From positions 6,644,830 through 6,708,829 of the forward strand of contig CAVNZM010000008.1 in NCBI GenBank assembly GCA_963693365.1: a DNA stretch of 64,000 nt, given 5' to 3'. The stretch's first letter is position 1. Each line of letters opens with the position of its first letter. This document shows positions 26,735 to 64,000 of the stretch, piece by piece. This stretch comes from Amoebidium appalachense (Eukaryota; Protista; Ichthyosporea). Made by a program: the position numbers and the translations under genes. The notes under the pieces are model-generated. The model ran no database searches. It saw nothing but the letters and a program-made list of their open reading frames with translations, and was not told where the DNA came from.

Positions 26735-27451
26735 ATGCTGCAGGGTGCATCAGCCGTTGTCGTTTTCGCTGCCGCCGCGGCAGCAAGCCCACAGTTCTGC
26801 TACTCCAAGACATCGGCAACATGCGAGGAGCTCCAATGCCTCCCCGTCGTTAGCACAGCCGGCTGCAGCCCTGTGACGGCAAACTTCGCCGGTGCCACCT
26901 ACTACACCAAGTTCACCTCGGACGCCGGCAAGGTGACCCTTCAGGCGTTTACCGACAACAAGTGCACCGTGCCCTTTGGTGCCGTAGACGCTGCCTTCGA
27001 CCAGTGCCAGACCAACGTCCTGCTGGCCTCCCTGGCCCTCAACCTGCCTGGAGAGGCCTCCCCCGTCACCATCAAGTCGTTCGTTGCCCAGGACACCGTG
27101 GTTATTGACCCTACCACGAACGCCCCCGTCCCTACCACGGATGCTCCTAAGCCAACTACGGAAGCACCAAAGCCTACTACCACCACTACTGCTAACGCTG
27201 ATGCTCCCAAGACCACCACCAGTGCTGACGCTGCCAAGACCACCACTGAGGCTGCCAAGCCAGACACCACCACGACCGAGGCGACTAAGCCGACCGGTCA
27301 GGTGCCCGTTGAGCCCAGTGTGCGTGCCAACCCCGTGGAGGAGATGATCACCCCACAGAAGAAGGTGGCCCAGCTGGCAAACAGCGGTGTGGCTGCAGCC
27401 CCCACCATATTCGCTGTTGTAGCTGCTCTGGTTGCCGTCTTGCTCAACTAA
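26735..27451 (+). CDS. Intronless 238-aa secreted, probably GPI-anchored surface protein (Cys-containing N-domain plus Thr/Pro/Ala mucin-like stalk)
   Basis: Hydrophobic N-terminal signal peptide (MLQGASAVVVFAAAAAA), 6 Cys in the N-domain, (K)PTT(E/D)A repeats, and a C-terminal NSG omega-like site with hydrophobic tail TIFAVVAALVAVLLN. Strong GC3 codon bias; CCAAT box at ~26528. Confidence 0.85.
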   Translation: MLQGASAVVVFAAAAAASPQFCYSKTSATCEELQCLPVVSTAGCSPVTANFAGATYYTKFTSDAGKVTLQAFTDNKCTVPFGAVDAAFDQCQTNVLLASLALNLPGEASPVTIKSFVAQDTVVIDPTTNAPVPTTDAPKPTTEAPKPTTTTTANADAPKTTTSADAAKTTTEAAKPDTTTTEATKPTGQVPVEPSVRANPVEEMITPQKKVAQLANSGVAAAPTIFAVVAALVAVLLN

Positions 27452-30601: not shown

Positions 30602-30833
30602 CATACGCGGTGGTTCTTACAGTTAGAGGGCCGACCAGGCACAGACTTCGGAACCCCAACCACAAATCACACAGGCCACTTCATACTAAGTCTTGCGCAA
30701 AGACCTTTGCTGGACTGCTCTTTTCACACACACATCAATACTATATAGTACCCAACGGGCCCGTGCTTCCGTTTCCTCTCCCAGTGGCATGTAACATCCC
30801 CACGTTCCCACCCCCAACCTCCCTCTCCGAACA

Positions 30834-32486
30834 GATCCACCTACCCGCCTGCCTCGGCCCGTACCCGGCTCTCCATGCCTAATACAACACACACTAAATT
30901 ATCAAGGCCCCCCTCCTGCGGATCCACCTACCCGCCTGCCTCGGCCCGTACCCGGCTCTCCATGCCTAATACAACACACACTAAATTATCAAGGCCCCCC
31001 TCCTGCGGATCCACCTACCCGCCTGCCTCGGCCCGTACCCGGCTCTCCATGCCTAATACAACACACACTAAATTATCAAGGCCCCCCTCCTGCGGATCCA
31101 CCTACCCGCCTGCCTCGGCCCGTACCCGGCTCTCCATGCCTAATACAACACACACTAAATTATCAAGGCCCCCCTCCTGCGGATCCACCTACCCGCCTGC
31201 CTCGGCCCGTACCCGGCTCTCCATGCCTAATACAACACACACTAAATTATCAAGGCCCCCCTCCTGCGGATCCACCTACCCGCCTGCCTCGGCCCGTACC
31301 CGGCTCTCCATGCCTAATACAACACACACTAAATTATCAAGGCCCCCCTCCTGCGGATCCACCTACCCGCCTGCCTCGGCCCGTACCCGGCTCTCCATGC
31401 CTAATACAACACACACTAAATTATCAAGGCCCCCCTCCTGCGGATCCACCTACCCGCCTGCCTCGGCCCGTACCCGGCTCTCCATGCCTAATACAACACA
31501 CACTAAATTATCAAGGCCCCCCTCCTGCGGATCCACCTACCCGCCTGCCTCGGCCCGTACCCGGCTCTCCATGCCTAATACAACACACACTAAATTATCA
31601 AGGCCCCCCTCCTGCGGATCCACCTACCCGCCTGCCTCGGCCCGTACCCGGCTCTCCATGCCTAATACAACACACACTAAATTATCAAGGCCCCCCTCCT
31701 GCGGATCCACCTACCCGCCTGCCTCGGCCCGTACCCGGCTCTCCATGCCTAATACAACACACACTAAATTATCAAGGCCCCCCTCCTGCGGATCCACCTA
31801 CCCGCCTGCCTCGGCCCGTACCCGGCTCTCCATGCCTAATACAACACACACTAAATTATCAAGGCCCCCCTCCTGCGGATCCACCTACCCGCCTGCCTCG
31901 GCCCGTACCCGGCTCTCCATGCCTAATACAACACACACTAAATTATCAAGGCCCCCCTCCTGCGGATCCACCTACCCGCCTGCCTCGGCCCGTACCCGGC
32001 TCTCCATGCCTAATACAACACACACTAAATTATCAAGGCCCCCCTCCTGCGGATCCACCTACCCGCCTGCCTCGGCCCGTACCCGGCTCTCCATGCCTAA
32101 TACAACACACACTAAATTATCAAGGCCCCCCTCCTGCGGATCCACCTACCCGCCTGCCTCGGCCCGTACCCGGCTCTCCATGCCTAATACAACACACACT
32201 AAATTATCAAGGCCCCCCTCCTGCGGATCCACCTACCCGCCTGCCTCGGCCCGTACCCGGCTCTCCATGCCTAATACAACACACACTAAATTATCAAGGC
32301 CCCCCTCCTGCGGATCCACCTACCCGCCTGCCTCGGCCCGTACCCGGCTCTCCATGCCTAATACAACACACACTAAATTATCAAGGCCCCCCTCCTGCGG
32401 ATCCACCTACCCGCCTGCCTCGGCCCGTACCCGGCTCTCCATGCCTAATACAACACACACTAAATTATCAAGGCCCCCCTCCTGCG
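30834..32486. repeat. Satellite array, 19 apparently identical 87-bp units
   Basis: Unit GATCCACCTACCCGCCTGCCTCGGCCCGTACCCGGCTCTCCATGCCTAATACAACACACACTAAATTATCAAGGCCCCCCTCCTGCG; 1653 bp = 19 x 87; no spacers. Confidence 0.97.
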
Positions 32487-32849
32487 GGAGAGGGGTGTGT
32501 GTGTGTGTGTGTTTGGGGGGGGGGGGGGGGAAGGGGGAGGTCTGGGGCCGGATAACCTTTTTCGCACACATTATCACCAACCGGCCATGACCCCTCCTTG
32601 ACTATGTAACGAGAGAGAACGGGAGGAGGGGGGAAGGGGGAGGGAGGGGTGGAGGGAGGGGGGAAAGGGAGGTCATGTGTGAGGGGAGAGAGAGAAGGGG
32701 ATGGAAGGGGGGATTGATTCAGAGAGAGCTGAGAGAGCGATGGAGGGAGGAAGGTAGGGACGGAGAGAGAGAGCAAGAGCAGGGGAAATTGGGATCTTGG
32801 GCGAGCAGGGAGGGAGGGGGGGATGGGGGGGGGAAGGAGGAGAGGGAGA

Positions 32850-38347: not shown

Positions 38348-38765
38348 TGTCGTATCCTAACTCGTGTGTATAAGAGAAGCGGCACTCTTCTAAAAGAACA
38401 CACACTCAGTCTGAGAGGAACGAACGTGTACCAGAAAACTGCAAAGTTTATTACTAAGCCTGACTCCGACGGGCAACCTGAGATCCGAATGGAACCAAGC
38501 CAAGTCACAACTCCGGCCATCAAGGTCGTGCCCCCAAAGATCATCATCACCAGGCCCCCCACGATGCCACATTCCGTAGTACATTCCGATCTAGCGAACT
38601 TATCGTGCGCCTGCACGAGCTAACTGAAGTCTATCGGCTCACACTAATATACATATCATTGTCTCTCCCCTCTCCCTTCCCCTACTAGTGGCACCGCAGA
38701 GTCTAAGTCTGCATTTCATACTACCTCCCCCCCTCCCCCCCCTCTACTCACTTCCCGTACATCAA
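38348..38765 (-). repeat. Truncated 3' LTR of A1
   Basis: Aligns with 57633-58060 and 58528-58925; similarity stops after GTACATCAAT. Confidence 0.8.
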
Positions 38766-39129
38766 TGCAAAAGGGGCAAACCTACGAATCTTGAGAACTT
38801 TTCCCAGAAACTCGTATATCTTGTGAAGGGATGTTTATTTTTGAAAACGGAAAAAACCTTTATAATACAATTTTAAGTCCTCTAGGGAACTTGTACTTAG
38901 AACAATAAAGCGACAGCCGTTTAGTACAGGCAGTTGATTTGTCGACCATACCTGAAGTTCAAATCAATTAGAGAACCCTGTAGATCATGATAGGCTCTCG
39001 ATCGATCGATCACATGTGTCGTGCACAGTCGCAAAACAAAAAAAAGAGGTCCCGTCGAAGTACCCACACTATTCTCCCGCTTTGTCTCCTAACCTTTTCT
39101 ATAGTCACTAAAACTCCGGCGCTTCGAGG

Positions 39130-39940
39130 CCAAACATACACAAGGACAAGTAAAATGGCATTTGCCGACATTATTCTTGTGCCCCGACTTGACACAAGCG
39201 ATATGGTTGACATAGAGTACAAGGATGATGCGCAGTTACTGAGAATCAAGCACTATCCTCTCCCCTACTTTCCTGCAGTGCCTACTAGTAAGTGTGTGAT
39301 TTGGCGCCGGGTGTGCTCGAGGTATATTGTGCTGGTGCTCCACGTCATCAGAGTAGGCTAGCAACGCGTCTGGGTGTATATACTTAACCGCCGTTTCCAT
39401 TTCCCCTGACATGAGACGTCAATGACATCAGTGGTAAGGGCACTACAATGGCGGGTGGGAGGGCGTCACCGGACGCAACAATAGTGGGAATGATGGATAG
39501 GTGCCAGTCTTGCTCCGCAAACCCATAGCCGACTTTGAATGTGCTTTTCATGTCAGACTCTGTGACCGTGAGAAGTTTCTGACCCGCACGCCCGTTGGTT
39601 ATGCGCAGTTCTTTCTCGTCGTCATTGAGCAGATTCTTCTCGTGACGTTTATCTGCTTTTCTTCCACCAGTTCCTCCACCATATCAAACCACAAATTCAT
39701 CTTCTCCTCCGTGAGGACGAAAACACGCGCTTTCGAAAGTTCGTTTGGTTTGCGGAAAGTGAGGTTGTAACCGTGCTGTTTGGCACGGCGTTCGAACAAA
39801 TTGAACCACCCCTCACCTGGAAGCCCGTCTGCTGTCTTGAATTTTTTGCCGTTATGCTCAGCAACGTCCCGTGCAGACCTGAGAACTTCAGCACGAGAAA
39901 CCCCTAACCCCCTCCCAGCCTGGAACACCAGCCCACTAGC
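39130..39940 (-). pseudogene. pogo/Fot1-like (Tc1-mariner) transposase remnant
   Basis: CENP-B-type HTH region (GLPGEGWFNLFERR...LTFRKPNELSKARV), then frameshifted DDE_1-like motifs LLNDDEK and HLSIIPTIVASGDALPPAIVV. Confidence 0.75.
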
Positions 39941-39979
39941 AGGCCAATTTCCTCATCTGCTGTTAGAATGGGCTTAGGG

Positions 39980-42900
39980 CCCGGTTTAGCCATATGATCC
40001 CAATCATTAGCCTCCACATCAACCATTTTGCCAATATGGACTTCTGAAACACTGCATGCACATGTTCAGAGATGGCATTTGCTTGAGGGTGATATGCAGA
40101 AGTAGTGATATGGGAGTGTACCCTTAAAATTTTACAAACCTCCGAAACCAACTGATTTAAAAACACACTACTCCTAATCCATTAACAAAACACGAGGACA
40201 ACCAAACCTAAGACAAATTTGAGCCACAAAAATACGAGCAAACAAATTTTAAACGGCATTAGCAGTGGGGAGAGCAAACACTTCAACCCAACGAGTGGCC
40301 ACGTCGGTTACGGTAGCGAGAGCAGTGTTACCATCAACCGTAGAATTAAAGGGACCAACCACATCTACTGCTACCCGTTCAAACATACGAACATTAAAAT
40401 CCCTAATAAACGACGGGCGGGAACGACTCGAGCTCAGTGGGGACTCTCATTCCTTTCCTGACAACGCATGCATGACAACACATAATCCCTCACCTCCCCA
40501 CTCATAACCGGCCAAAAATACGAACGACTACCACGAAGCAACGACGTCCTATTTACACCCAAATGACCAGCCATGGGATGCTCATGCACCATATGCAAAA
40601 CCTCGGGCACAAGTGCCGCCGGGACCCAAACGCGGTGTCCGTCTGGCCCAGAACAATGATAAACTAAATCCTGCTCTACCTGACACATTTTTGCAAACTG
40701 AGCTACCTTAACCATCTGCCTTTTTTATTTAATTTAAACCAAACCGACCGGCCCCTTTAAATAATTCTTAACCAGACCAATCAACACATCTTCAAGTTCT
40801 TCCTGAGCTGAGATCAAAGCCGTAGGTGTTAAGGCAGGGGCCGAGCCGTGAGGCTTGGTCCCGACCTCAGACACCGACAAATACCTCCCCCCCTCTGCCC
40901 GACACTTCAGTAAGCAAGCAACCCCGGAGCCCAAGAAGACACATCAACATGATGATACACCGCATCTATTCCCTTCTTGTCACTCTAGGCTCCCCCCCCT
41001 TCCCCCCCTCCCCCCCGTCTCTCACTAGCCCCCCCTCCCCCTCCTTCTCTTCAAGTTCTTCCAACAAAATATAAGCGGCGCGAGAGAGCGCATCACAGTC
41101 AACCGGCATTGTTTCACCCTTGGCATAAAACAGTTTATAGGAGAACTCACCGAGAGCCGCGGCCCACTGGCACTTCTGCATCCTCTCGTTGACGAGACGA
41201 GTGGTGCCGGCCATGGCTAGGCAGGGCTTGTGGTCGGTGTAGACCTCGAACGTCCTGCCTGCGTAAATATACCTCCATACTATACCTGCCAGAGACTGCC
41301 CAAAAGATCGCATGGGACTCTCTCTCCGGATTGCTATATCTACGTTCGCTTTTACTAAACGAACGACTAGCATAAGCAATCACTCGCGAGTCCTGCCTCC
41401 CCTGCACTTGATATAACACTGCCGGGCCCCTCAGCAACCTTACTTGCATCACATCGAACTTTAAACATCCCCCCCCCCCCCCCCCCCCCCCCCCCCGGCC
41501 GAAAAATCAGGATGAACAAGCATACTCGAAGACTGCAAAGTAGTAACTTAAGCTTTTCAAAAGCAGAAACAGCATCATCATTCCAATCTATTCTATTCTT
41601 CTTCTCCCCCCCTGTCTGACTAGTTAACGGCAAAGCAATCTTACTATAATCTTTAATATAACAACGAAGATAATTAGTTAAACCTAAAAACTGCTAAGTT
41701 AGTTGAGTGAGTCTGAGGATGTGGCCACTCAACTAGGGCCCGGATTTTCTCCGGATCAGGGGAAAGACCATTACTAGAAACGATATGACCTAAAAACTTT
41801 ACCTCCTGCACACCAATCACAGTCTTGCTACCACTAATACGAAGACCAGACTCACCCAAAGCTAAAAATACCTTTTCACAATTTTCAATCAACTCTTCCA
41901 ACGACCTTACCTTTAATTAAAGCATCATGATCCAAATAAGGGTGGCATACATCCAAATGCGGTGGAGGATTTTATACATTACCCGGCACAACATAGCTGG
42001 AGAGGAGAGCAAACCCCGGGCCATCGGCACCACCTTCAAGTACTGGAACAGCTGGTCACCCAGTGCAAAGGCACTGTCTTCTCCTTGCTGCTCTCCTCCA
42101 GCCTTATCTGCCAAAAAGCTGCTTTTAAATCAAGTTTAGCAAAATGAGTCTAGCCGTGCAGCTGTGAAAGCTGCTCGTCTATGTTAGGGAGAGGCCATTG
42201 GTCTGCCTTTGTGACCCAATTCAGAGCCCTGTAATGGTTCACTAGACGCCAAGACCCGTCGGGCTTCTTAACCAATATTCACCGGACTACTCCACGGACT
42301 GGAACTATGCTCCACATGACCCTTTTTTAACATATCGTTCACTATGATAATTAGCACATCGGACAATTTATACTGCTCCATTCTACAGCTAGGCATAACT
42401 ACCGGCCTATTCAATCACCTGTGTCGATAGGCATTTCCCACCCTTTAACGAAGCCTACTTCGTTATCATCGGCAAGAAACTTTATGCAAACCGAGTCCTA
42501 TCAAATAACTTAGCTAATAATTTTTTCTGCTCTACCGTCCAATCCCCCTCCTTCAAGTTCATACCAAACGGCAAGACTAACTCCGGGCTACCCCGGCGGC
42601 ATCACAAGCGGATGCATCCTTATTCACTGGAGTGCCACTTACTAGTAACATTTCACCTCCTGTATCACATCGGTGCTGCACGGGGTTAGTTTGGGGTACC
42701 TCCGGGTATAGGCGTTCACCAGTAGCACCCCCCCTCCCCCCGGCATACCAATGCCCCCGGGCAATTCCTGATGAGTTAGTGCATGCCGTATGTGGGCGGC
42801 CAGGTCCGACTGTGGCCACCCTGCCCCCCACGGTGTTGCCAGTGGTTAACCCGTCAGATCCACAGGTTAGACCAACCCCCCCCCCCCCCCCCTGCCTGCA

Positions 42901-43870
42901 CATTCTCACACCCAAAATGACCCTCCTTCCTCTTGGGGGTCGGGGGGAGTGGGACCGGTGGTGTCCCGGTCCCCCCCCCCCCCATCGTGTCGGGTGACGT
43001 TTTGGTGGCTATCGTTAAATAAAGCTGTTTCCCCCCCTCCTGAGTCACCCTTCGAGCCGGCATCCTCCTTTTGGGTAATAAGAGAGACCTCTATACTACC
43101 AATCTCATTAGTCACGGAAACTACCGACGGAAACACCTGACCTAACCACTGTGGGCTCGATGCCCTGATTCACTAAATCCGAGTCTATTTCTATCGTCTT
43201 ATCCGGCCATACCCTACTAAGGGTCCATTGAGCCACCTCCTGAAACGGGGATTTCGGAGTAAAAACCCCTAAATCCCCGATCCTAACATGATTGCGGGCC
43301 CGGACACGTACCGTTTGGCACTGATAAGGCTCGATCACTACTTCAGCTACCGTTCTAGCACCGGACTGATAACTGTCGAGCCCATCGTGGGTTTTAATTT
43401 TAACGCCAGACTGCAACTCTAAAACATTCGTACGTTCAAACAAAGCATTCACATGTCTACGAAAAAATGGGGCTCCCAACAAAACACTTTGAGCTAGATC
43501 CTTAACCACATAACAAGTGAATATGCATATTCTGGCCACCTATCTCACACGGCAACACACAAACACCTTCGACAGACATACTACTATTATTAGCACTACC
43601 TAAGGCCGTGCTAGAAGCATCTAAAATAGGAATCTCCCCCCCGGCCTGAGTAAAACGACGAATAAACGAAGCATGCACACAATTAACCTGAGCCCCTCCA
43701 TCGAGCAAAGCAACAGCCTTCAACTTACCATCGGCTAACCATACGCCTCTATAATGCCCGCTAAAACCAACTAAATCCTCCTCCAATTCGAGCAACACAT
43801 CATCACTCACACCCAGACCCTGCCCACGAAGACTCACACCCTCGACACCTACCTGAAGCATACCTACCTG
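39980..43870 (-). pseudogene. Decayed pol (PR-RT-RNaseH-IN) of A1
   Basis: Colinear with the A2 pol (LLDGGAQVN, VKFLGHIVS, YTDHKP, HEHPMAGHLG, AYHPQANAISE) but with many indels and stops. The integrase C-terminus and chromodomain are deleted. Confidence 0.92.
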
Positions 43871-47512: not shown

Positions 47513-50500
47513 CGGCGGTGGTTAGATGAGTGGGTGCCTATGGGTATAAATTTACAACGCCATGGCAAGTATGGGTGTTCAGGTGTGTGTGTGAAAGCAA
47601 CGGGGGAAACGGGAGAGGGAAAAGGGGGTGTCATGTGCTGAGCTGATTCGTATTAGTTTGCTTCTATATTTTGTGTTTTGGTGAGTGAATTTCGGGGGTT
47701 TTCTTGCATAGTGATGCCGGGGTCTAAATGGGGTATGAGGAGATTAATCAGTGGTATGGGGAGAATCTGATGCAGCGGCGGCTGATTGTTTGGTGCGCGC
47801 GTGCATGCCCCATGCCTCTGCGTACTCTCCATGTTAAATGTTGTATTGCTTCTTGCTGTGTGCGTGGCGAGACCCATGTTGCCTGCTCGCGTGTGTGTAT
47901 GCTTATATGTATTGTGAGTAAACGTGTGTACGTGTTGTAGTGCTGTAGGGGTGTCTGAGGTCGCGGTAGCCAATGGTGTGGAGTGCGTGTAGTCTGTGGG
48001 GGAGGGAGTGTTGTGATTGGCTGAATGTCACTGTGGTATTTGTCTGGCCAGTGGGCCGCGTGTCTGTGAAGTGTCTCGCGGGGTCGCGGGCTTTTGGAAG
48101 TTCTTCTCAGAACACAAAAAACTCGCTTCCCACCCAACTCAAAGAAAAGTTTATACGTATACACAGTTTCGAGCCCCTTTAAGCGTGCAGATAGTTAGAG
48201 TAGTTTGTATACACTCTGTTTGTTGCCACGACAAGCTACACCCCCTTTCTCTGCAGTTTTTTGCAGGGAGGGGGCACACGCACTGTTAGTCCTTCTGGGC
48301 TGTTGCTTTCACCCCTAGTTTTTTTTTTCTTTCACGCCTAGCGGTTATGAGTGGCTTTGACTTAGGACTTTTTCGACAGTTAGAGGTAGAAGAAACATAC
48401 GCACACACAGGCCTACAGCTAGCAACAGTTGGCATAGGCAACTTGAGCAGTAGGACTAGTATCACAGGGGACTTAGTCCTCGCTAAGGACCTTGACCTCC
48501 CTAGGTGACTTAGCAAGCTCAGGGCCGTTTGCCCAGCAGAGGCCTCAGAGGGGACCGGCGGCAGTCACCCTCCCCACGGCGCTACCAGCCCTACCAGCCA
48601 CGGCCACAACGGGATAACAGATGGGCCAGGCTGGCGTCTTTGGGGCGGGACAGCAAGAGCCGGCGCCAGGCTCTTTCCCAGGCACCTGTGACAACTGCAA
48701 GGAGCGGGGGCAACGCGTGGTGTAAACAGCCCCGTCGTGGGGGGCAGGGACGTCGGTGACCGTGTTGCTGGTATGAAGGTTTTATTAGGGGGTAGGCCAT
48801 CTCTTGGGTTGTTGTTGTTGTAATACTATGGGAGTAACTGTTGTGTGGTGTTATTTTTCGGCGAGTTTTCTACTGGTGCCTGGCGTTTTCGACGTGTGTA
48901 TGAGTCCTGTGTTGGCGACGTGTGTGGTTAGGGTCAGTGGAATAGAAAGTCCTGCTGCTGTCTGGGAGCTCGGCCCTCTGACGAGGGGGCTGGGGGGGGG
49001 TCGAAGTGTAGTCATGGCAGTGGCAGGCCCCCACTGTTGTGAACCCCCGTCGTCAAAGGGCCTGGTGCTGAGGCCCCTTGGAGTGGCTGCCCTGGGCCTG
49101 GTGTTGAGGCCCTTTGGAGTGGCTGCCCGTAGTGTTGTTGAGTAGTGTTGTGGTGCCCAGTGCAGCAGTAGGCCTTAGACACACCGCTGGGTAGGGCACG
49201 GTTGGGGCGGAGGCATTCCCAAACCACCGGGACCTACGTAGTAGGAGTCTTTGTCGGGTAGAGGAATGGCCAGCAAGAGAGTCTGGAGGTGTACGTCACA
49301 TGAGTCTGGAGGTGTTCGTCACGGCATGTTTGGTTGTGTTAGGAATATTCTTTGTGGATGGGGCATGCTGAGTGTGGTTTTATGGATGGTGTCTGTTATC
49401 ATGTCTGTTGCTATGTTCCACTCGATATAACATTGTGCCAGGGGCATGGGGTTTTGGGTGCAGGTTGTGGACGGGGGCAGAGGTGCATCTACAGGGCAAC
49501 GTCAGTGGCGGTTCATAATTATCCTTGTTTTGGGGTTGGGTTGGGTATTAACCATGGTGGGGTGGTGTGTGGATGCATGTATATGTTTTATGTTATATGT
49601 TAAATGTTAAATGTTGCTTCCTGCATGGGTAGCGGTAGTTGTAGTCGCTCAGCACATAACTTTATTTTGTTCTTAGGTAGTTTTTACTGAGGTGGAACTC
49701 AGTTATTTTCTGTGCGAGGGGGGAGTTGTCATGTGCTGAGCTGATTCGTATTAGTTTGCTTCTATATTTTGTGTTTTGGTGAGTGAATTTCGGGGGTTTT
49801 CTTGCATAGTGATGCCGGGGTAATGGGGTATGAGGAGATTAATCAGTGGTATGGGGAGAATCTGATGCAGCGGCGGCTGATTGTTTGGTGCGCGCGTGCA
49901 TGCCCCATGCCTCTGCGTACTCTCCATGTTAAATGTTGTATTGCTTCTTGCTGTGTGCGTGGCGAGACCCATGTTGCCTGCTCGCGTGTGTGTATGCTTA
50001 TATGTATTGTGAGTAAACGTGTGTACGTGTTGTAGTGCTGTAGGGGTGTCTGAGGTCGCGGTAGCCAATGGTGTGGAGTGCGTGTAGTCTGTGGGGGAGG
50101 GAGTGTTGTGATTGGCTGAATGTCACTGTGGTATTTGTCTGGCCAGTGGGCCGCGTGTCTGTGAAGTGTCTCGCGGGGTCGCGGGCTTTTGGAAGTTCTT
50201 CTCAGAACACAAAAAACTCGCTTCCCACCCAACTCAAAGAAAAGTTTATACGTATACACAGTTTCGAGCCCCTTTAAGCGTGCAGATAGTTAGAGTAGTT
50301 TGTATACACTCTGTTTGTTGCCACGACAGGGGGGGGGGGGAAGGGGGGGGGGAGAGAGGGGGGGGGGGGGGAGGGAAGGAAGGGAGAGGCGAGGGCATAT
50401 GTGGGTTAGAGTGAAAAGAAGGAGAAGGGATATGAGAACTATTACCTAATGGATGCATGGGCCGAGGTCCCGGTGGGTGGGTGGGTGGGTGGGTTGGGGG

Positions 50501-51024: not shown

Positions 51025-52224
51025 CGTGTGCTTGTGTGTTTTCCTGTATAGCCCGCAAGGCATGGTGTATGTCTTTGTGTGCCCTTTAAGTTATACGTGT
51101 GCGTATACCTGCACGACTTTGTGGTCAGATGCTAGCCTGCTAAGAGCCAGCACGGTGTGAAACAGGTGGATTTGAGGCCAACCAGACCACGACCCCTTGC
51201 ATGTACAGGTGCAACTCTAAACGGGAGTGCGTGCCTGTAGCTGTCTTTGGTTCCAACTGTTAAGTGTGAAAGTATATTGTGCGCACGTGTGTGTCTGTGT
51301 GTTTGTGGTGGGTGCGGATGTGTGTGTGTGTACGTGTGTTTGTGTGCTGGTGTCCGTGTGTGTGTATGTCTGAAAATTGTGTGTTAACGACTGCGTCTTA
51401 TCGTCTGCACGCTCTTACTCCATGCGTGTGTGTGTGTGTGTGCCGTGTGTGTGTACATGTGTGTGTGTGTGCGTGTGTGTGTGCGTGTGTGTGTGCGTGC
51501 GTGCAAGTGTGTACGCAAGCTTGTGTACCACTTTTCGTCACCCTACCCTAGGCAGACTATACGTGAAGTTGTATACAAGCAGAGAATTAGGAACATGCTT
51601 TTGGTATGTTCAATACCTTTCTCGACGGTAGAAGTATAGAGGTGTGACTGCCAGGAGCACTCACGCCTTGGACTCCCTCATTCTCTCTACCTCTAGAAAG
51701 AGCCCAGATGATCTGTCGGCCCTTATTCTAAAATTGCACGCCGCACCCCTAAGCCATTTAAGTGGCCCCATACTCTGCTAGTTCGCACACTAAATATGAT
51801 AACGACAAAATTTTCCTCCTTTCCATCATCAACCAACTCTCACTTCAGGACAAGCTCAAACTGTACAGTGGAGCGGCCGTCGGGAAGCTGATGACTCCAA
51901 GCCCGGAGGCGCGCATTCAGCATAGCCCCCATTTTGTACAAAGTTGGTTTACCATTGGTCGGCTAAGTGTGGTGCGACATTCCATCATCCGATTCCACTC
52001 ATGAGCCCGCCGAAAAGCGCACGAGCCCGAATGTGATCGTACGATTATCGGAAGGTCGCGGTCAATGTGTCGCGTGCGCCGGCGGAGTTAGGTCTAGTTT
52101 ATACCCTTCCGTCGATTATCGGCAGATCGAAAAGTGCGGTACAATTTACCTCCCGATTACCCACAGATTTCGCTGCATGCCGTTTCGGATTATCTGCGGG
52201 TACGGGGGGTAGTTTTTCGCAGAG
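45145..52224. mobile_element. Unclassified 7080-bp TIR DNA element inserted in A1 gag
   Basis: 37-bp TIRs (45145-45181 and 52188-52224, 34/37 identical, termini CTCTGCG...CGCAGAG). 3-bp TSD AAC (45142-44, 52225-27). GATTATC subterminal repeats. Removing it restores the gag frame QPDALTVLVKQVAEL. Confidence 0.9.
47629..50328 (+). mobile_element. LTR element B1 (2.7 kb), an internally deleted gag-only derivative; LTRs 47629-48233 and 49727-50328
   Basis: TGTCA...CGACA LTRs, apparently differing only by a 3-bp indel. [36 protein letters not shown] before the 3' LTR. No pol. Confidence 0.95.
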
Positions 52225-52227
52225 AAC

Positions 52228-53082
52228 ACAGTGAGTGCATCTGGCTGTTCACCCTCCTTTTCTTCTTCCTTTCCCCTTTCTTTCCACTTTCTCTCTTCTT
52301 CTTATCCACCTCCATCACCTCCTTCCTATCCCTCTTGTTAAACTTCACTTCATGCATAGCAAGCAAGTGACGTTTAACATGAAGCACCACCTCATCAACA
52401 TCATCATGCTCACCAAACATAGGTGCAGTGTCTGTGTTGACAGAGAGAGCCTTGCGTGCAAACTCGAACTTATCTCTAGCACTCACGTCACCAGCCAACT
52501 CACAAAGGTCTTCAAAGACCGTATACTCCCTTTCAAAGAATGCACGAGCTTCAACAGGGGACATAGAGTGAAAGGTATAATTCCATTCTCGCAGATGGGC
52601 GCGGAACGTGCGTCATCGGTCGGCCGTCAAGTATCGGTTGACGAGCCTGGTCGTATACTCGAGCTCGTTCTGGGGCCGGTTAAACTTGAAGGCCTCGAGC
52701 TCACCATCGACGTCGTCGGTCTTGGTCTTGTCATCATCGTTGGGAATGAACCGTGCTGCCAGACGTTTCTGGCCTAACGTACGCTCGTCGCACTCCTCGT
52801 CGTACTGTTGCTCGTATATGTGAACGGCAGTCACCTGTGGTGCCTGCTCGGCCCTGTAAGGGTGCTCCTCCATGAGGGTGCACAGGTCGGCCATTGTTTT
52901 GTGGTCTATGCACTGCTTAATCATTAGGCAAGAGGCCGCCACTCTACTATAGGGGCCTTCTTGGCATCTATTACTAGTGTGGGTGTGTTGGCTACGAGTG
53001 TGCGGTGCCAGCGTGGTATCTCTGAGTCGTGTTTGAGTGTAAAACTAACGCTGTTGTATGTCTCACGTCTATGGTGTGGACC
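52228..53082 (-). pseudogene. A1 gag middle part; the N-terminus continues at ~57421-57490 beyond B2
   Basis: RPQNELEYTTRLVNRYL...MSPVEARAFFE...VKRHLLAMHEVKF aligns with the B2 gag. Contains stops and frameshifts. Confidence 0.75.
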
Positions 53083-54108
53083 TGTGGTGTCGTGGCAACA
53101 TACAGTGTGTATATGAACTACTCTAACTATCTGCACGCTTAAAGGGGCTCGAAACCGTGTATACGTATAAACTTTTCTTTGAGTTGGGTGGGAAGCGAGT
53201 TTTTTGTGTTCTGAGAAGAACTTCCAAAAGCCCGCGACCCCGCGAGACACTTCACAGACACGCGGCCCACTGGCCAGACAAATACCACAGTGACATTCAG
53301 CCAATCACAACACTCCCTCCCCCACAGACTACACGCACTCCACACCATTGGCTACCGCCACCTCAGACACCCCTACAGCACTACAACACGTACACACGTT
53401 TACTCACAATACATATAAGCATACACACACGCGAGCAGCCAACATGGGTCTCGCCAAGCACACAGCAAGAAGCAATACAACATTTAACATGGAGAGTACG
53501 CAGAGGCATGGTGCATGCACGCGCGCACCTTTAACAATCAGCCGCCGCCGCATCAGGTTCTCCCCATACCACTGATTAATCTCCTCATACCCCACTTAGA
53601 CCCCGGCATCACTATGCAAGAAAACCCCCGAAATTCACTCACCAAAACACGAATTATAGAAGCAAACTAATACGAATCAGCTCAGCACATGACAACTCCC
53701 CCTCGCACAGAAAATAACTGAGTTCCACCTCAGTAAAAACTACCTAAAAACAAAATAAAGTTATGTGCTGAGCGACTACAACTACCGCTAACCATGCAGG
53801 AAGCAACATATAACATATAACATAAAACATATACATGCATCCACGCACCACCCCAGCATGGTTAGTACCCAACCCAACCCCAAAACAAGGATAATATGAA
53901 CCGCCACTGACGTTGCCCTGTAGATGCACCTCTGCCCCCGTCCACAACCTGCACCCAAAACCCCATGCCCCTGGCACAATGTTATATCGAGTGGAACATA
54001 GCAACAGACATGATGCCAGTGGGAGAAAATGTAAAGTTTACATTTTGGGTCGGTTCGTATGGTCCTCCAGCGGACTATGAGAGTCCGCCTGGACTCTGAG
54101 AGTCCTGT

Positions 54109-54796: not shown

Positions 54797-56699
54797 TTAC
54801 ACCACGCGTTGCCCCCGCTCCTTGCAGTTGTCGCAGGTGCCTGGGAAAGAGTCCGGCGCCGGCTCTTGCTGTCCCGCCCGACGACGCCAGCCTGGCCCAT
54901 CATCCCGTTGTGGCCGTGGCTGGTAGGGCTGGTAGCGCCGTGGGGAGGGTGACCGCCGCCGGTCCCCTCTGAGGCCTCTGCCCTCCTCCCTCTCACGGTC
55001 CCGGTACCTGTCTCCTCTGTACCGGTCCCCCTCCTGGTCCTTCTCCTCCAGACGCTTGGTGAGCACAGCCACCTGCTTCAAGAGAGCAGTGAGTGTAGGC
55101 GTGTCCTGCCCAGCCCCATGCTTTACCTCCATGACCTCAGCAGCATGCTTATCCCTCATAGCCAGCTTACTCTCAAACTGCGCTAAAAACCGCCTCTTCA
55201 CCGCCCTCCACGCCAAGTCTACCTCATGCTGCTCTTCATGCTGAGCAAACAGCTCACCAAACTGACTGCTATCTACAAACAGAGAGCGAGCAGCATGAAA
55301 CTTTCCACGAGCATCATTCTCCAACCCAGCAAGAAACACAAGAGCACGAAAATTTTCTTCGAACAGCTCAAAGTGGGTTCTAGCTTCGGTCACAGACATG
55401 GTGAGGGGGGGGTAAGTAAACTTAGCTTGTCTGAGATCAGCGTCAAACTGTTATTTTGTGTGGGTAAACGGAGAAGCAGAGAGCACAGATGGGTGTTATG
55501 TAAAACACAACACAAGGACACACGGGAAAAACACAACCGGAGAGGAGGAACGATTTCTGGAACCATAGGAAGTGAATACGACTGCTTGTGATTTATTTCA
55601 AGATGAGGTCCCTTTTATACTTGGGAATGTGAAACGATAAACCAATCAAAAGAATGAAAACTATGAGTGTAAAATATATCGAATAAAATGTCTGTCGACA
55701 TTTAGAATATAAAACTCAATCCTCTAATGAAAGAAACTTCTAATAAAAGCACGGAAACATTTAATAAAATGAAACCACTTATGTAACTATTAATTCATAA
55801 CATATATTTATACATGTTCTTATCATAACACGTCTAAATATAATTTTTTTCTAATAGTTGAAGAACATAGCACAATGCTACGTCGTGGGAAAGGAATGAG
55901 AAAGGAATGTAAGTTACTATATTTGGGAAAATACAAACGAGATATGATTGGATGACATATATAGATTTTGACGCAAACGACAATACGTGTGCGCGAGCTA
56001 AGTATGTCGATACGTACACAGATCTAAGATGTCGTGTACACGGAAACGGAAAAGAAAGAAAGAAAATGAAGAAAGGAAAAGGAAACAAACTACAACAACT
56101 AATAAATAAATACCAAACTCAACTTCTAAGTCTTGCTGAGAATTAAGTGAAGATGACACAAACTCCCGTCGTCGTCCGTCGTCCAGGTACTTGGCCACCG
56201 CCCTGTCAAGCCACTCAAGCTCATTCTCGGGGCGCAAAACCTCCACCACGTCCCCGGAGCCGCCTGTAACAATAGGCACCTGTGCGTTGGCCGCTTCGTA
56301 GCGGGCGGCCAGCTGGAGTGCGGCCGGGTTGCGGGCTCCACCCGCCACTGTGCGGGCGTACGCAACCGTGCGCACAGACGGCTCGTCGGTAGGCAGTTGT
56401 GTGCTTTCAAGCACTTTCTGGAACTCCAGCATTGAGGAGCCCACCGTGTTCATGATGAGTGTGGCCATCCTTCGAGGCGTTTGGACGTCCTTCCCCTCAG
56501 TGGCCTCTGCTGGGCAAACAGCCCTGAGCTTGCTAAGCCACCTAGGGAGGGCGAGGTCCTTAGCGAGGACTAAGTCCCCTGTGATACTAGTCCTACTGCT
56601 CATGTTGCCTATGCCAACTGTTGCTAGCTGTAGGCCTGTGTGTGCGTATGTTTCTTTTACCTCTAACTGTCGAAAAAGTCCTAAGTCAAAGCCACTCAT
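54797..56699 (-). pseudogene. B2 gag-like ORF (395 aa when the solo LTR is removed), interrupted
   Basis: Removing 55449-56158 plus one TSD joins ...GRRREF|DADLRQAKFTYPPLTMSVTEAR... in frame. Homologous to A1 gag; ends in a broken knuckle CDNCKERGQ. Confidence 0.85.
55449..56158 (-). mobile_element. Solo LTR of a third family (710 bp, AT-rich)
   Basis: TGTTA...TGACA termini, 5-bp TSD CAAAC (55444-48, 56159-63), TATAAAAG on the minus strand at ~55612-55619. Confidence 0.88.
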
Positions 56700-56796
56700 A
56701 ACCGCTAGGCGTGAAAAGAAAAACTAGGGGTGAAAGCAACAGCCCTGAAGGACTAACAGTGCGTGTGCCCCCTCCCTGCAAAAAACTGCAGAGAAA

Positions 56797-56808
56797 GGGG
56801 GTGTAGCT
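56797..56808 (-). promoter_or_regulatory. Putative primer-binding site AGCTACACCCCC immediately after the 5' LTR (also at 48234-48245 and, as AGCTACACCTTT, at 57621-57632)
   Basis: Occupies the PBS position in three elements from two LTR families with otherwise unrelated LTRs. Confidence 0.7.
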
Positions 56809-57632
56809 TGTCGTGGCAACATACAGTGTGTATATGAACTACTCTAACTATCTGCACGCTTAAAGGGGCTCGAAACCGTGTATACGTATAAACTTTTCTT
56901 TGAGTTGGGTGGGAAGCGAGTTTTTTGTGTTCTGAGAAGAACTTCCAAAAGCCCGCGACCCCGCGAGACACTTCACAGACACGCGGCCCACTGGCCAGAC
57001 AAATACCACAGTGACATTCAGCCAATCACAACACTCCCTCCCCCACAGACTACACGCACTCCACACCATTGGCTACCGCCACCTCAGACACCCCTACAGC
57101 ACTACAACACGTACACACGTTTACTCACAATACATATAAGCATACACACACGCGAGCAGGCAACATGGGTCTCGCCAAGCACACAGCAAGAAGCAATACA
57201 ACATTTAACATGGAGAGTACGCAGAGGCATGGTGCATGCACGCGCGCACCTTTAACAATCAGCCGCCGCCGCATCAGGTTCTCCCCATACCACTGATTAA
57301 TCTCCTCATACCCCACTTAGACCCCGGCATCACTATGCAAGAAAACCCCCGAAATTCACTCACCAAAACACGAATTATAGAAGCAAACTAATACGAATCA
57401 GCTCAGCACATGACATGTGGGATCTGTGTGTGCAGGGAGCTATCCTCCGCTGCCAACGCGTAGAACATATTTACGTTAAAGTAACCATGGTGTTGTGTGT
57501 GTCCTAACGTTTTGTGTGTGTGTGTTTTTTTTTTTTTCGTTGCAGTTATCTGAGGTGTAGCAACAGCCCAGAAGGAACTGTCACCGCGTGTAAACTAACG
57601 CGAAAAACCGCACTAAAAGAAAAGGTGTAGCT

Positions 57633-58065
57633 TGTCGTATCCTAACCCGTGTGTAATAAGAGACGCGGCACTCTTCTAAGTAAATACACACTGAGAGGAA
57701 CGAACGTTTTTACGAGGAATCTGCAAAGTTTATTACTAGGCCTGACGCCGACGGGCAACCTGAGATCCGAATGGAACCAAGCTAAGTCACAACTGCGGCC
57801 ATCAAGGCCGTGCCCCCAAAGATCATCATCACCAGGCCCCCCGCCCCACGATGCCACATTCCTTACATTCCGATCTACTAGTAATGAACTTTATCGTGCG
57901 CCTGAACGAGCTAAGTCTATCGGCTCACACTACTATACATATCCTTGTCTCTCCCCTCTCCCTTCCCCTAGTGGCACCGCAGAGTCTAAGTCTACATTTC
58001 ATACTACCTCCCCCCTTCGGAAGTCCCCCCCCCCCCCTCTACTCTTTCCTGTACATCAATATATA
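57633..58065 (-). repeat. 5' LTR of A1 (alignable part; its U3 may extend to 58527, where A2 begins)
   Basis: Similar to 38348-38765; adjoins the PBS and the gag N-terminus. Confidence 0.75.
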
Positions 58066-58527
58066 CAGTATGCGTCCACGCATAACATACTCCACGCACA
58101 ACATAACGTCGACGCCGAGGGATTCTGTTAGCGCACCAAGGGGTCCTATACATAGTAGGACGAATTATCGGGTTTATCTGGTCAGTTTAGACCCCCTATG
58201 TTTAGTATTTCGATCTCTTTCCCAGACAAAACAGTGGTTCGCCGTGATTTCAACGACCGCCCAAAGCTCGCCAGGGCCAATGATAGGCGGCGGCCGCACA
58301 TATGCATCGCATGGTATGCAAAGGACTCATGTGGCCGACTATGTCGATAAACGAGCAGAAACATACGAAGGCCCCAACTAGTTCGAAGCAGTCTTGTATA
58401 GCTAGTTTTTACATCCTAGTCATATAGGCAGGTTGAATGCATATTAAACCCACCGATCATGACCAAGCCAGTAGTCCAGGTGCAGGCAGCTGCACTTGGG
58501 GCGTTGAATAGTGCACTGCACACAGTA

Positions 58528-61500
58528 TGTCGTATCCTATTGTATGTGTACTAGAGACGCGGCACTCTACTAAGTGTACACACACGAAAAGGAACGAACG
58601 TGTACAGGAAAACGGTAAAGTTTATTAAGACCAGGCTCCGACGGGCAAACTTAGATCCGTACGGATTGAGTCTAAGTTACGACTGAGGCCATCAAGGCCG
58701 TGCCCTACAAGATCATCATCACCTGGCCCCCTACGATGCCACATTCCATTAAAATTCCGATCTACTTTTATCGTGCGCCTGCACGAGCTAAGTCGATCTA
58801 CTCAACTAATATATTTAATAACCAAGTCTCACCCCTCACCCTCCCCCTAGTGGCACCGCAGAGTCTAAATCTACATTTCATACTATCCTCCCCCCCCCCT
58901 CCCTCCCCCCCTTTCCTCTACATCTACATATATAAATACGTTTGGCAACATATACTATCAAACCTTGCCAATCCTTACAAAAGGGCTTCTGCCCGAACAA
59001 TCACATTCCTAAGTCCTCCTACGATCTATCCTACACACTAATTAGAATTCTATTGGACGGCTGTCCCGGCTGACGTGGTCCAATGCCCTGCGCCGGCAGA
59101 GGCAAGATGCACGCAGCTGTTCAGCTATAGTATCTTGAGGCCCCGGACTTGATCTTGATGATCTGTGGACCCGGGCCACCCCCCCCCCCCCCCCCCCGAT
59201 CTCGATCGTAGACTTAGGCTAATCTGCTGAGACGGATTAGTATATGTCAACTCCCCCCCCCCGGCCCCCGGAAAAGCTGAGTCCCACCTCAGTCACATTA
59301 CATCTAACACCCCCTAAAAAGACATAGACTAATCAGTCTCCTAAAAAAATTAAATTAAATGAATGACGAAGAAAAATAATAAATTAATCTACACCATAAG
59401 CTTGATACCTACGGAGACACCTATGATAATAAATTAAATTCCTACGACTACGTTCACACTCCTCCTCGGTCTCCTCCCCCCTCCCCCTCCCCCCGTGTGT
59501 CTACGTGTATTTGCATCACTCCCCCCCCGGTCCCCTCCCCCACCGACTTTTTCACACCACGATTAAACTGAGGAATAACTCTCTTTGGCCTAGAGGGAGC
59601 ACTAGGCAACTCCCTCTGCACTAATCTAGCCTCATAAGCACGAATAGAAAACGGGCAATCCAAATGAAACTCAGGCAACCACTGATCTTCCTGATAACCT
59701 CCCTCAAAACGAATTAAATAATAATTTACCTTACCTTCCTTACCTTCGATAACCTTTTTATCCATAATTTTATCTACTGCAGCCTCCGATACATCCACCG
59801 ACCCGTCATAGTCGGGGGTGAATGCATCTAACACTCGACGGCCCTCCGGCCGTTTAACCCTAAGGGCCCTATCATAATATTCCTTTATATCATCTACATT
59901 ATAAAATCTAACATCACTCTCATTATCTAACCTCTGCACCTTATATTCCGTCGGACCTAACCTAGCCACTATTTTATACGGGCCAATGAAAAGAGGCAAC
60001 CATTTCTTACCATACTTACGAAGACCTTCACCTTCACCCTTAACTTCCTGCTCCTGCTTATATCTCTTTTTCCTAGTATGATCCCTAATTAAAACTAAAG
60101 TACCCTCGGCAAATTCACGTAACGGACGTGTGGACACGTCTGCACGTGTCTGTGCCTGCTGTGTACGGGCCAGAGCTGCATCACGTGCAGCCCGGGCCCG
60201 GGTTAGTAGCTGCTCCCGGAACTCAGTCCAGTGGGGATAAGTTAGTCGGTCAGCCCCCCCATCGGCAAAAGTGCCGTATCTAACAAACTAATAGCCTCCT
60301 GCCCATAGACCAAATAAAACGGAGAAAAACCAGTCACAGCATGAGGGGTAGAATTATATGAATGAGCAATAAACCTAGACATATGATCCCAATCATTAGC
60401 CTCCACATCCACCATTTTGCCAAAGGACTTCTGAAACACTGCATGCACACGTTCAGAGATGGCATTTGCTTGAGGGTGATATGCAGACGTAGTGATATGA
60501 GCTACCCTTAAAATTTTACACACCTCCGACACCAACTGATTTAAAAACACACGACTCCTATCCGTTAACAAAACACGAGGACAACCAAACCTAAGACAAA
60601 TTTCATCCACAAAAATACGAGCAAACAAAACGGCATTAGCAGTGGGGAGAGGAAAAACTTCAACCCAACGAGTGGCCACATCGGTGACGGTAACAAGAAC
60701 AGTGTTACCCTCAACCGTAGAATTAAAAGGACCGACCACATCCACGGCTACCCTTTCAAACATACGAACATTAAAATCCCTAATAAACGACGGGCGGGAA
60801 CGAGAGTGGGGACTCTCATTCCTTTCCTGACAATGCATGCATGACAACACATAATCCCTCACCTCCCTACTCATACCCGGCCAAAAATACGAACGATTGA
60901 CACGAAGCAACGTCCTATTTACACCTAAATGACCAGCCATGGGATGCTCATGCACCATATGCAAAACCTCAGGCACAAGTGCCGTCGGGACCCAAACTCG
61001 GTGTCCGTCTGGCCCAGAACAATGATAAACTAAATCCTGCTCTACCTGACACATTTTTGCTAATTTAGCTACCTTAATCATCTGCCTTTTATTTTTAAAT
61101 TTAATCGAATCAACCGGCCCCTTTAAATAATTCTTAACCAGACCAATCAACACATCTTCCTCCTGCGCTAAGATCAAAGCCGTAGGTGCTAAGGCAGGGG
61201 CCGAGCCATGAGACTCGGTCCCGACCTCAGACACTGACAAATACCGCCCCCCCCCTCCCCTACACTTATAAGCAAGCAACCCCGGAGCCCAAGAAGAAAC
61301 ATCAACAGACACAGCATCTATTCCTTTCTGCTCACTCTCCCCGCCCTTCCCCCCTCCCCCCCCCGTCTCTCACTAGCCCCCCCTCCCCCTCCTTCTCTTC
61401 TTCAAACAAAATATAAGCAGCACGAGAGAGAGCATCACAGTCAACCATTGTTTCACCCTTGGCATAAAACAATTTATAGGAGAACTCACCGAGAGCCGCG

Positions 61501-64000
61501 GCCCACTTCTGCATCCTCTCGTTGACCAGACGAGTGGTGCCGGCCATGGCTAGGCAGGGCTTGTGGTCGGTGTAGACCTCAAACGTCCTGCCTGCGAGTA
61601 TATACCTCCATGCCTGTGAGACTGCCCAAAAGATAGCATGGGACTCTCTCTCCGGATTGCTATATCTACGTTCACTTTTACTAAATGAACGACTAGCATA
61701 AGCAATCACTCTATCCTGCCCCTCCTGCACTTGATATAACACGGCCCCCTCAGCAACCTTACTTGCATCACACCGAACTTTAAACATCCCCCCCCCGGCC
61801 GAAAAATCAGGATGAACAAGCATACTCGAAGACTGCAAAGCTAACTTAAGCTTTTCGAAAGCAGCAACAGCATCAGCATTCCAATCAATTCTATTCTTCT
61901 TCTCCCCCCCCGTCTGACTAGTTAACGGCAAAGCAAGCATACTATAATCCTTAATATAACGACGAAGATAATTAGTTAAACCTAAAAATTGCCTTAGTTG
62001 AGTGACAGTCTGAGGACGGGGCCACTCAACTATGGCCCGGATTTTCTCCGGATCAGGGGCAAGACCATTACTAGACACAATATGACCTAAAAACTTAACC
62101 TCCGGCACACCAATCACAGTCTTGCTACCGCTAATACGAAGACCAGACTCACCCAAAGCTAAAAATACTTTTTCACAATTATTAACTAACTCCTCAAATG
62201 ACCTACCTTTAATTAAAACATCATCCAAATAAGGGTGGCATACATCCAAATGAGGGTGGAGAATTTTATACATTACCCGGCACAACATAGCTGGAGAGGA
62301 GAGCAAACCCATCGGCACCACCTTGTACTGGAACAGCTGGTCACCCAGTGCAAAGGCAGTCTTCTCCTTGCTGCTCTCCTCCAACCTTATCTGCCAAAAA
62401 GCTGCTTTTAAATCAAGTTTAGCAAAGTGAGTATAGCCGTGCAGCTGTGAAAGCTGCTCGTCTATGTTAGGGAGAGGCCATTGGTCTGCCTTAGTGATCC
62501 GATTCAGAGCCCTGTAATCGTTCACTAGACGCCAAGACCCGTCGGGCTTCTTAACCAATAGCACCGGACTTCTCCACGGACTCGAACTATGCTCCACATG
62601 ACCCTTTTTTAACATATCACTCACTATTATTAGCGCATCCGACAATTTATACTGCTCCATTCTATAGCTAGGCATCACTACCGGCCTATTATCACCTGTG
62701 TCGATCTGCATTTCAAACCCTTTAACGAAGCCTACTTCGTTATCATCGGCCAGAAATGCAAACCGAGTCCTATCAAATAACTTGGCTAGCAATTTTTTCT
62801 GTTCTACCGTCCAATCCCCCTCCTTCATACCAAACGGCAATACTAACTCCGGGTTACCCCCATCACAAGTGGATGCATCCTTATTCACCGGAGTGCCACT
62901 TAACATTTCACCTCCTGTATTACATCGGTGCTGCTCGGGGTGAGGTTGAGGTACCTCCGGATATAGGCGGTCACCCTTAGCACCCCCCCTCCCCCCGGCA
63001 CACCAATGCCCCCGGGCAATTCCTGATGAGTTAGTGCATGTATGTGGGGGGCCAGGTCTGTGGCCACCCTGCCCCCCACGGTGTTGGTTAACCCGTCAGA
63101 TCCACGGGTTAGACCAACACCCTCCCCCCCTGCCTGCACATTCTCACACCCGGGGTGACCCTCCTTCCTCTTGGGGGTCGGGGGAGTGGGACCGGTGCTG
63201 TCCCGGTCCCCCCCCCCATCGTGTCGGGTGACATTTTGGTGGCTAACGTTAAATAAAGTTGTTCCCCCTCCTCCTGAGTCACCCTTCGAGCCGGCATCCT
63301 CCTTTTGGGTAATAAGAGAGACCTCTATACTACCAATCTCATTAGTGAAACTACCGACGGAAACACCTGACCTAATCACTATAGGCTCGATGCCCGGATT
63401 GACTAATTCTATTTCTATTGTCTTATCCGGCCATACCCTACTAAGGGTCCATTGGGCCACCTCCTGAAATGGGGTTTTCGGAGTAAAAACCCCTAAATCC
63501 CCTATCCTAACATGATTGCCGGCCCGGACACGTACCGTTTGGCACTGATAAGGCTCGATTACTACTTCAGCTACCGTTCTAGCACCAGACTGATAACCGT
63601 CGAGCCCATCATGGGTTTTAATTTTAACGCCGGACTGCAATTCTAAAACATTCGTACGTTCAAACAAAGCATTCACATGTCTACGGAAAAATGGGGCTCC
63701 CAACAAAACACTTTGAGCTAAATCCTTAACCACATAACAAGCAACATGCATAGCCTGGCCACCTATCTCACACGGCAACACACAAACACCTTCCACAGAC
63801 ATACTACTATTATTAGCACTACCTAAGGCTGTGCTAGAAGCATCTAAAATAGGAATTTCCCCCCCGGCCTGATTAAAACGACGAATAAACGAAGCATGCA
63901 CACAATTAACCTGAGCCCCTCCATCGAGCAAAGCAACAGCCTTCAACTTACCATCAGCTAACCATAGGTCTATATAATGCCGGCTAAAACCACCTAAATC
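58528..64000 (-). mobile_element. Ty3/Gypsy chromodomain LTR retrotransposon A2, near intact, continuing beyond the window; 3' LTR 58528-59302
   Basis: LTR TGTCG...TTACA, PPT-like TAGGGGGTGTTAGA adjoining 59303, and pol domain order PR-RT-RH-IN-chromo. Confidence 0.95.
59454..64000 (-). CDS. A2 Pol polyprotein (aspartic protease, dUTPase-like spacer, RT, RNase H, integrase, chromodomain), split by three frameshifts at G-homopolymers
   Basis: LLDGGAQVN; SPWRSPVLLVKKPDGSWRLVNDYRALN; YLDD; CDAS...ERE...YTDHKP...DALSR; HxxxxxxH...CxxC; VDVVGP...LTD...QANAISER; FIGPYKI; VDKIMDKK...YYLIRFEGGYQEDQWLPEFHLDC. Confidence 0.93.

Follow-up and report, generated by a model that had tools for sequence, protein, structure and literature searches.

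Primers of known LTR retrotransposons

A survey of plant LTR retrotransposons distinguishes three types of primer, the whole tRNA, the half tRNA and the self-primer, and the available part of its text confines half-tRNA priming to Ty1/copia elements (PMC6317226). Ty3 and the retroviruses combine TG...CA LTRs with a 5-bp target duplication, a polypurine tract and the domain order PR-RT-RH-IN, all of which recur at the Amoebidium appalachense locus described here. However, the primer-binding sites described here depart from this pattern in lacking TGG, in matching no tRNA 3' end, and in following the LTR without a spacer. Half-tRNA priming is found in Drosophila copia, Ty5, the plant elements Osser, Bryco and Bianca, and the fungal Helenus and Copia elements. 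Like the mechanism proposed below, it relies on a 3'-truncated tRNA and not on the CCA end. In the excerpts at hand, half-tRNA sites lie in the anticodon arm and in Ty1/copia lineages (PMC6317226, PMC10886601), with anticodon-loop primers in fungal Helenus and Copia (PMC10886601), whereas the site proposed here corresponds to nt 1-12 and belongs to Ty3/gypsy elements.

The Tf1/sushi group (Tf1, Tj1, Tosmo, and plant Tcn1) shares with family A of this study the Ty3/gypsy order with a chromodomain, and a primer-binding site that abuts the terminal CA without TGG. Its primer is a short 5'-terminal piece of RNA, a copy of which can remain on the cDNA end, as in our proposal. As far as the accessible text of the two sources goes, self-priming of the Tf1 type requires a complement of the primer site in the LTR (PMC4600332, 10.1101/2022.12.06.519325). 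In contrast, the elements described here display neither an LTR complement nor any sign of the "pretzel" central duplex, and the partner would be a host tRNA acting in trans. The dictyostelid Skipper elements are a further comparable system: these chromodomain Gypsy elements have no TGG, a pyrimidine-rich stretch after the LTR and no self-complement, as here, and the available part of their description leaves the polypyrimidine site unexplained and the primer unknown (PMC5006619). One text supplement of that paper contains none of the primer-binding-site terms. Going by this description only, Skipper differs in that a specific, mixed 9-nt core matching a tRNA 5' end precedes the pyrimidines in our elements.

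In a full-text literature search, with most subscription journals, Repbase annotations and preprint supplements outside its scope, no account of a primer formed by tRNA nt 1-12 came to light. Two sources deal, in their available parts, with tRNA 3'-end sites only (PMC3286476, 10.1101/2023.10.26.564294), and the latter, a survey testing 3' ends only, assigned no site to 361 of its 1512 elements. A 5' tRNA-Asp fragment has been linked to Gypsy primer sites, in the accessible passages as a regulator and not as a primer (PMC11962134). Term searches for primer sites came up empty in the papers on the elements of Capsaspora and Salpingoeca (PMC4007536, PMC6875170). A primer consisting of tRNA nt 1-12 would, if true, constitute a fourth class of LTR priming, and short tRNA fragments from the 5' end would thereby take part in replication. 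Since pipelines that test tRNA 3' ends only would miss such sites, some families recorded as having no primer-binding site may use it, and the idea suggests a test for the unexplained site of Skipper.

Architecture of the two families

The window, the whole 64,000-nt stretch of DNA that was analysed, contains elements of two families, A and B. Family B is present in two copies. B1, on the plus strand, is bounded by a 5' LTR at 47629-48233 and a 3' LTR at 49727-50328; B2, on the minus strand, has a 607-bp 5' LTR at 56809-57415 and a 3' LTR at 53088-53694. These ends are fixed by the TG...CA termini, by near-identical LTR pairs (602/602 and 606/607 aligned bases identical), and by flanking 5-bp target duplications, GGGGG for B1 and CCACA for B2. 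B2 carries two ORF pieces on the minus strand within 54797-56723 (55998-56723 and 54797-55450), termed gag-like from their position. They have no match in Pfam, and the best ESM Atlas score for the B gag-like ORF, 0.89 with an unnamed protein, is a lead only. A 3' hairpin motif and polypurine tract lie at 53696-53733 (minus strand), and no pol was found in family B. About 1.5 kb of B2 (56492-54981) is missing in B1, with an overlap of about 19 bp at the junction (48536-48554); as its LTRs are identical and its target duplication is present despite the deletion, B1 probably moved after its deletion. The B2 insertion (57416 / 53087) falls within a family A leader, about 205 nt past the primer site of that element, and splits this site from the A gag-like ORF.

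All family A features lie on the minus strand. The LTR preceding the primer site occupies 57633-58065, its left boundary being putative. Three LTR copies, which diverge past ...ACGACA, fix its end at 57633, as do a contig edge and a loose end of 255 nt located there. The 3' LTR of a pol-bearing copy lies at 58528-59249, next to a 3' hairpin motif and polypurine tract at 59251-59292, and pol itself extends over 59454-64000 in four frames (protease-like, RT + RNase H, integrase, and SH3-like + chromodomain). The site-preceding LTR is tied to this copy through an LTR identity of 77-84%, and the two do not form one unbroken element. The 58066-58527 segment between the two LTRs is unlike the left part of the other LTR and has TACTG at both ends. 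Gag-like ORF pieces at 52190-53044, homologous to those of family B, continue the family A leader past the B2 insertion. A third family A LTR (38348-38766) is 84% identical to the LTR at 57633, and a second, decayed copy of pol (39987-43777) has 90% DNA identity to the first. Where this second copy breaks off, an ORF piece (39599-39952, minus strand) has no Pfam match; we take it to resemble a pogo/Tigger-type transposase.

Family A has the PR-RT-RH-IN order, an LTR ending in CA and a polypurine tract before the 3' LTR, all typical of Ty3/gypsy elements, and not the Ty1/copia domain order. Its best relative of solved structure is Ty3 (E 5e-60). The C-terminus of its integrase resembles HP1-type chromodomains (E 2e-6); the Pfam Chromo score is 21.8 bits, under the cut-off of 25.1, and that of its relative P0122 is 31.2 bits, over it. 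A tree of RT/RNase H was built from 128 sequences covering the domain, none of them a named reference element or named reference chromovirus, and here family A clusters with eight environmental polymerases (P0121, P0122, and P0270-P0275; 55-68% identity, support 1.0). Members of this clade mostly have a chromodomain match and were seen only on short environmental contigs; P0148, P0150, and P0153 form its sister group.

The initial annotation regarded the two LTR families as otherwise unrelated. Between their LTR bodies there is indeed no alignment (best E 0.12), but that claim fails for the rest of the elements: A and B have in common the LTR tip ACGACA, a leader block past the primer site, the 3' hairpin with its polypurine tract, and gag-like ORFs that match at 39% over 108 aa. 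In family A the leader block lies at 57554-57576 (minus strand) and ends with a second GCTACACC; its B2 counterpart is at 56727-56752 (minus strand). In both families, the block closes with a further stretch partly complementary to the tRNA 5' end, about 60 nt past the primer site. The summed contig depth in bins 57559-57584 is about two to three times that of the primer-site bins, and more families may share the block. As A and B are related, their three primer sites are not independent origins, and one origin is to be counted, not two. We infer that the shared site would be a single inherited signal, retained while the LTRs turned over, and not the product of two inventions. With its LTRs, target duplications, primer site and polypurine tract, its lack of pol and the cis signals that it shares with A, family B has the features of a non-autonomous partner, and is probably a pol-less passenger of family A.

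The primer-binding sites

The putative primer-binding site of B2, AGCTACACCCCC, is found at 56797-56808 on the minus strand, that of B1, identical over its 12 nt, at 48234-48245 on the plus strand, and that of family A, AGCTACACCTTT, at 57621-57632 on the minus strand. The initial annotation had located all three correctly, save for the strand of the B2 and A sites. Each adjoins its LTR and reads AGCTACACC(CCC/TTT), the first base coming right after the terminal CA of the 5' LTR; the claim that there is neither a TGG nor a 2-nt spacer thus holds at all three. None of them has the canonical signature of a tRNA 3'-end site, a TGG start within a few bases of the LTR, and all of them have that of Tf1/sushi sites, which abut the LTR without TGG.

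The 9-mer AGCTACACC occurs three times in the window, at 48234-48242 (plus), 56800-56808 (minus), and 57624-57632 (minus), for a mean of 0.59 expected by chance; a count of three is reached in 3 of 100 shuffles of the window. The 15-mer ACGACAAGCTACACC, formed by the shared LTR tip and the site, is found in the window at these three sites only, and allowing up to two mismatches none of 100 shuffles reaches three. With one mismatch allowed, the bare 12-mer is not above chance in the window (43/100 shuffles), and it is therefore the position of the site that counts. The window contains a single family A site.

Correspondence with a tRNA 5' end

According to the initial annotation, the complement of the site is a tRNA 5' end, nt 1-12, found in some tRNA-Ala species. 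This was addressed with a proxy, in which viral contigs were scanned for the complement of the site followed by two tRNA-like bases (nt 13-14); the resulting 14-nt pattern is biased toward tRNA 5' ends, and all tRNAs examined are viral, not the host's. At least 120 viral loci, from 8 of 64 parts of the viral contigs, carry it. Of the 120 loci listed, 84 have an ARAGORN tRNA that covers the pattern, and the pattern starts at nt 1 in 82 of these tRNAs and at nt 2 in the other two. With this 5'-end-biased pattern, a test for anticodon-arm location thus puts all 84 at the very 5' end. Ala accounts for 59 of the 84 and Asp for 10, the rest being Ile, Met, Lys, Arg, Pro, and Trp, so that the correspondence stands, in viral tRNAs. 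Some human tRNA-Ala genes begin with the same letters. In the window itself, ARAGORN finds no tRNA, and Rfam yields no match over 56400-59400 at E up to 1.

One of the viral loci, L068, encodes a eukaryote-type tRNA-Ala(AGC) bearing the pattern, and serves to evaluate the pairing. With it, the family B site forms 12 bp (-25.5 kcal/mol) and the family A site 11 bp (-17.2 kcal/mol), which upholds the idea that the CCC/TTT difference preserves pairing through G-U wobble. The duplex spans nt 1 to U12 and halts at the LTR edge, as nt 13-14 of the tRNA are unable to pair with the CA of the LTR; a primer ending at U12 would leave a blunt LTR end. Under the window's composition the 12-mer has a probability of 4.7e-7, or ~2e-5 once multiplied by ~50 tRNA types, a figure valid only if the host has such a tRNA end.

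Several points speak against a tRNA partner. Nucleotides 8-12 of tRNAs are stereotyped, and a loose match to some tRNA start would not be rare. The final three positions of the family A site require G-U pairs. Furthermore, the CCCCC of family B also pairs in a predicted leader hairpin, in B2 at 56768-56801 (minus strand; z -1.7), in which the C-run of the site faces a downstream G-run; the predicted fold of the B1 region has a z of -3.1. This hairpin may provide a second reason for the Cs.

These points leave room for an explanation to which we give a low probability, namely that the site binds the end of another small host RNA or follows a Skipper-like polypyrimidine route, the tRNA match being partly chance and the B C-run being kept by the hairpin. 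The A and B sites both lead into pyrimidine tracts, the predicted B hairpin covers the C-run, and the match rests on viral, not host, tRNAs. As described in the part of the source available, Skipper provides the precedent of a chromodomain element with a polypyrimidine stretch and with neither TGG nor LTR complement (PMC5006619). Yet this explanation does not account for a pairing that starts at tRNA nt 1 and breaks off after nt 12, at the LTR edge, nor for the CCC found after an A-type LTR end in one public contig (see below), and the predicted fold of family A has no hairpin over the last three positions of the site.

Proposed priming mechanism

The reading that we favour, as somewhat better than an even bet, is that minus-strand DNA is primed by a 12-nt 5' fragment of a host tRNA of the GGGGGUGUAGCU type, likely tRNA-Ala. 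The initial annotation had proposed such a primer; the missing LTR complement, the match to nt 1-12 and the G-U pairing speak for it, and its premise of unrelated families has had to be dropped. Under nt 1-12 priming, the tRNA would be expected to start with GGGGGTGTAGCT. Its 5' strand would leave the acceptor stem and pair with the site, perfectly in family B and through G-U pairs in family A. A cut after U12, for which the RNase H of the element (as in Tf1) and a host nuclease are about equally probable agents, would create a 3' OH exactly at the end of the LTR, and RT would extend it. Pol-less family B would borrow A-type enzymes for these steps.

Tf1 RNase H cuts its own element RNA. That the element's RNase H would cut the host tRNA-Ala after nt 12 once the 5' strand is paired, thus performing Tf1 chemistry in trans, is a conjecture by analogy that we consider rather doubtful; such a cut, if true, would form a bridge between tRNA priming and self-priming.

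The site would normally be inherited from the element RNA, and a copy of the primer at the cDNA end would occasionally be integrated. Inheritance from the element's RNA is described, in the accessible text, for Ty1 and Ty3 (PMC7472051), and the TTT kept by family A fits it. Because three wobble positions set the A site apart from the proposed primer, primer-derived and element-derived DNA can be told apart by sequence alone, and this wobble marker makes family A an unusually good test case.

The additional stretch partly complementary to the tRNA, which both families have about 60 nt past the site, could instead indicate that the whole tRNA is bound through its 5' strand for dimerisation or packaging, priming proceeding from another 3' end. 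Ty1 and Ty3 bind their tRNA at multiple sites, which is in keeping with such a role. The site is located, however, exactly where a primer must end if the LTR end is to be blunt, and a further primer site was not seen, making this the role to which we assign least probability.

Self-priming

The chromodomain of the family A integrase, and a site that abuts the LTR without TGG, as is typical of Tf1/sushi elements in the available parts of their descriptions (10.1101/2022.12.06.519325, PMC4600332), raise the question of self-priming from the element's 5' end or from another part of its RNA, through a short or imperfect duplex. The left part of one family A LTR is putative, which leaves some room for it. 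Five LTRs were searched for runs pairing with the site, both with and without G-U pairs, and compared with 200 shuffles. The best runs of complement are 4-7 nt long and are equalled by 113-198 of the 200 shuffles, and the LTR-site duplex energies are no better than those of shuffles (60-164/200). The initial annotation had found no conserved self-priming complement inside either LTR, and this observation withstands the comparison. When the search takes in the whole elements, the best pairing is a run of 8-9 nt, mostly G-U.

Tf1-type self-priming from either LTR was therefore rejected, for lack of an above-chance complement in the five LTRs. Snap-back priming from the G-run downstream of the B site, which pairs with it, was likewise discarded, family A having no counterpart of that run. 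Nor would self-priming predict a site common to LTR bodies that cannot be aligned. In its broader form, including short or imperfect duplexes, we hold it to be improbable.

Copies in public contigs

The family A site region (57546-57930) was compared with the contigs of four public runs at 80% likeness; these runs stem from at most three studies, one of which may be the window's own source. The numbers of aligned contigs are 275 (X1), 272 (X3), 98 (X12), and 18 (X16). None of the 40 substitutions listed falls at 57621-57632, and LTR bases 57647, 57648, and 57650 vary. The per-run tallies add four further substitutions that may lie within the site, namely C>T once in X1, G>C once in X3, and A>G twice in X12; conservation across family A copies thus holds among the substitutions listed, with these four as possible exceptions. 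By the tallies, a TTT-to-CCC change at 3% or more is excluded for X1, X3, and X16, whereas X12 still allows one. A frequent one-base deletion at 57620 leaves positions 1-12 of the site unaffected.

One X3 contig (depth 51.4) runs to 57643, continues with TTTTAGGG, and resumes at 57624. It was taken as plus-strand letters, as the opposite reading would have extended the alignment into the A-run of the window. In the element sense, it consists of an A-type LTR end, AGCTACACCCCC, TAAAA, and the terminal 11 nt of the LTR followed by the normal site. Since the family A site ends in TTT, the Cs came from elsewhere, and they end at tRNA nt 1. The variant is what a copy of the GGGGGUGUAGCU primer would leave, and is suggestive of a cDNA end integrated into the LTR tip of another copy. 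In the part of the source available, a full copy of the primer persists on the 3' end of about half of Tf1 cDNA, and non-templated addition by Tf1 RT also occurs (PMC11042837); the layout of the variant, a primer copy followed by extra bases, fits such ends. It is a single contig from one of the four runs, with flank lengths not given, and the joints table does not contain it. Over 13 nt, a rare subfamily of A would look identical, as would a recombinant of A and B carrying the B site.

Relatives elsewhere and other features of the window

Queries with the environmental clade closest to family A recovered no DNA locus in viral, metagenome or prokaryote contigs. Among 95 distant Gypsy loci (16 viral and 79 from metagenomes), few of which have both LTRs, none has the site at a definable LTR end; in L008 and L180, matches to the motif lie upstream, not at a definable LTR end. 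Two distant Gypsy loci with both LTRs (L175:226 and L185:3773) have a TGG-type site 2 bases past the LTR, that is, ordinary priming. A 17-nt pattern made of the LTR tip plus the site was also tried; it is present in eight viral loci, none with RT or DNA likeness, and these matches are attributed to chance.

Elsewhere in the window, a near-perfect tandem array with an 87-bp unit occupies 30747-32612, within long open frames of 613 and 586 aa. A 248-aa frame at 26705-27451 (plus strand) has an apparent signal peptide and a Thr/Ala/Pro-rich tail, and no homologue among 7995 candidates scored. The frame at 24727-25479 (minus strand) shows a weak hAT dimerisation match (E 0.079) and is probably a decayed DNA transposon. 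Finally, an exon-sized piece at 15267-15419 (minus strand) corresponds to the C-terminus of a GMC oxidoreductase (E 3e-11).
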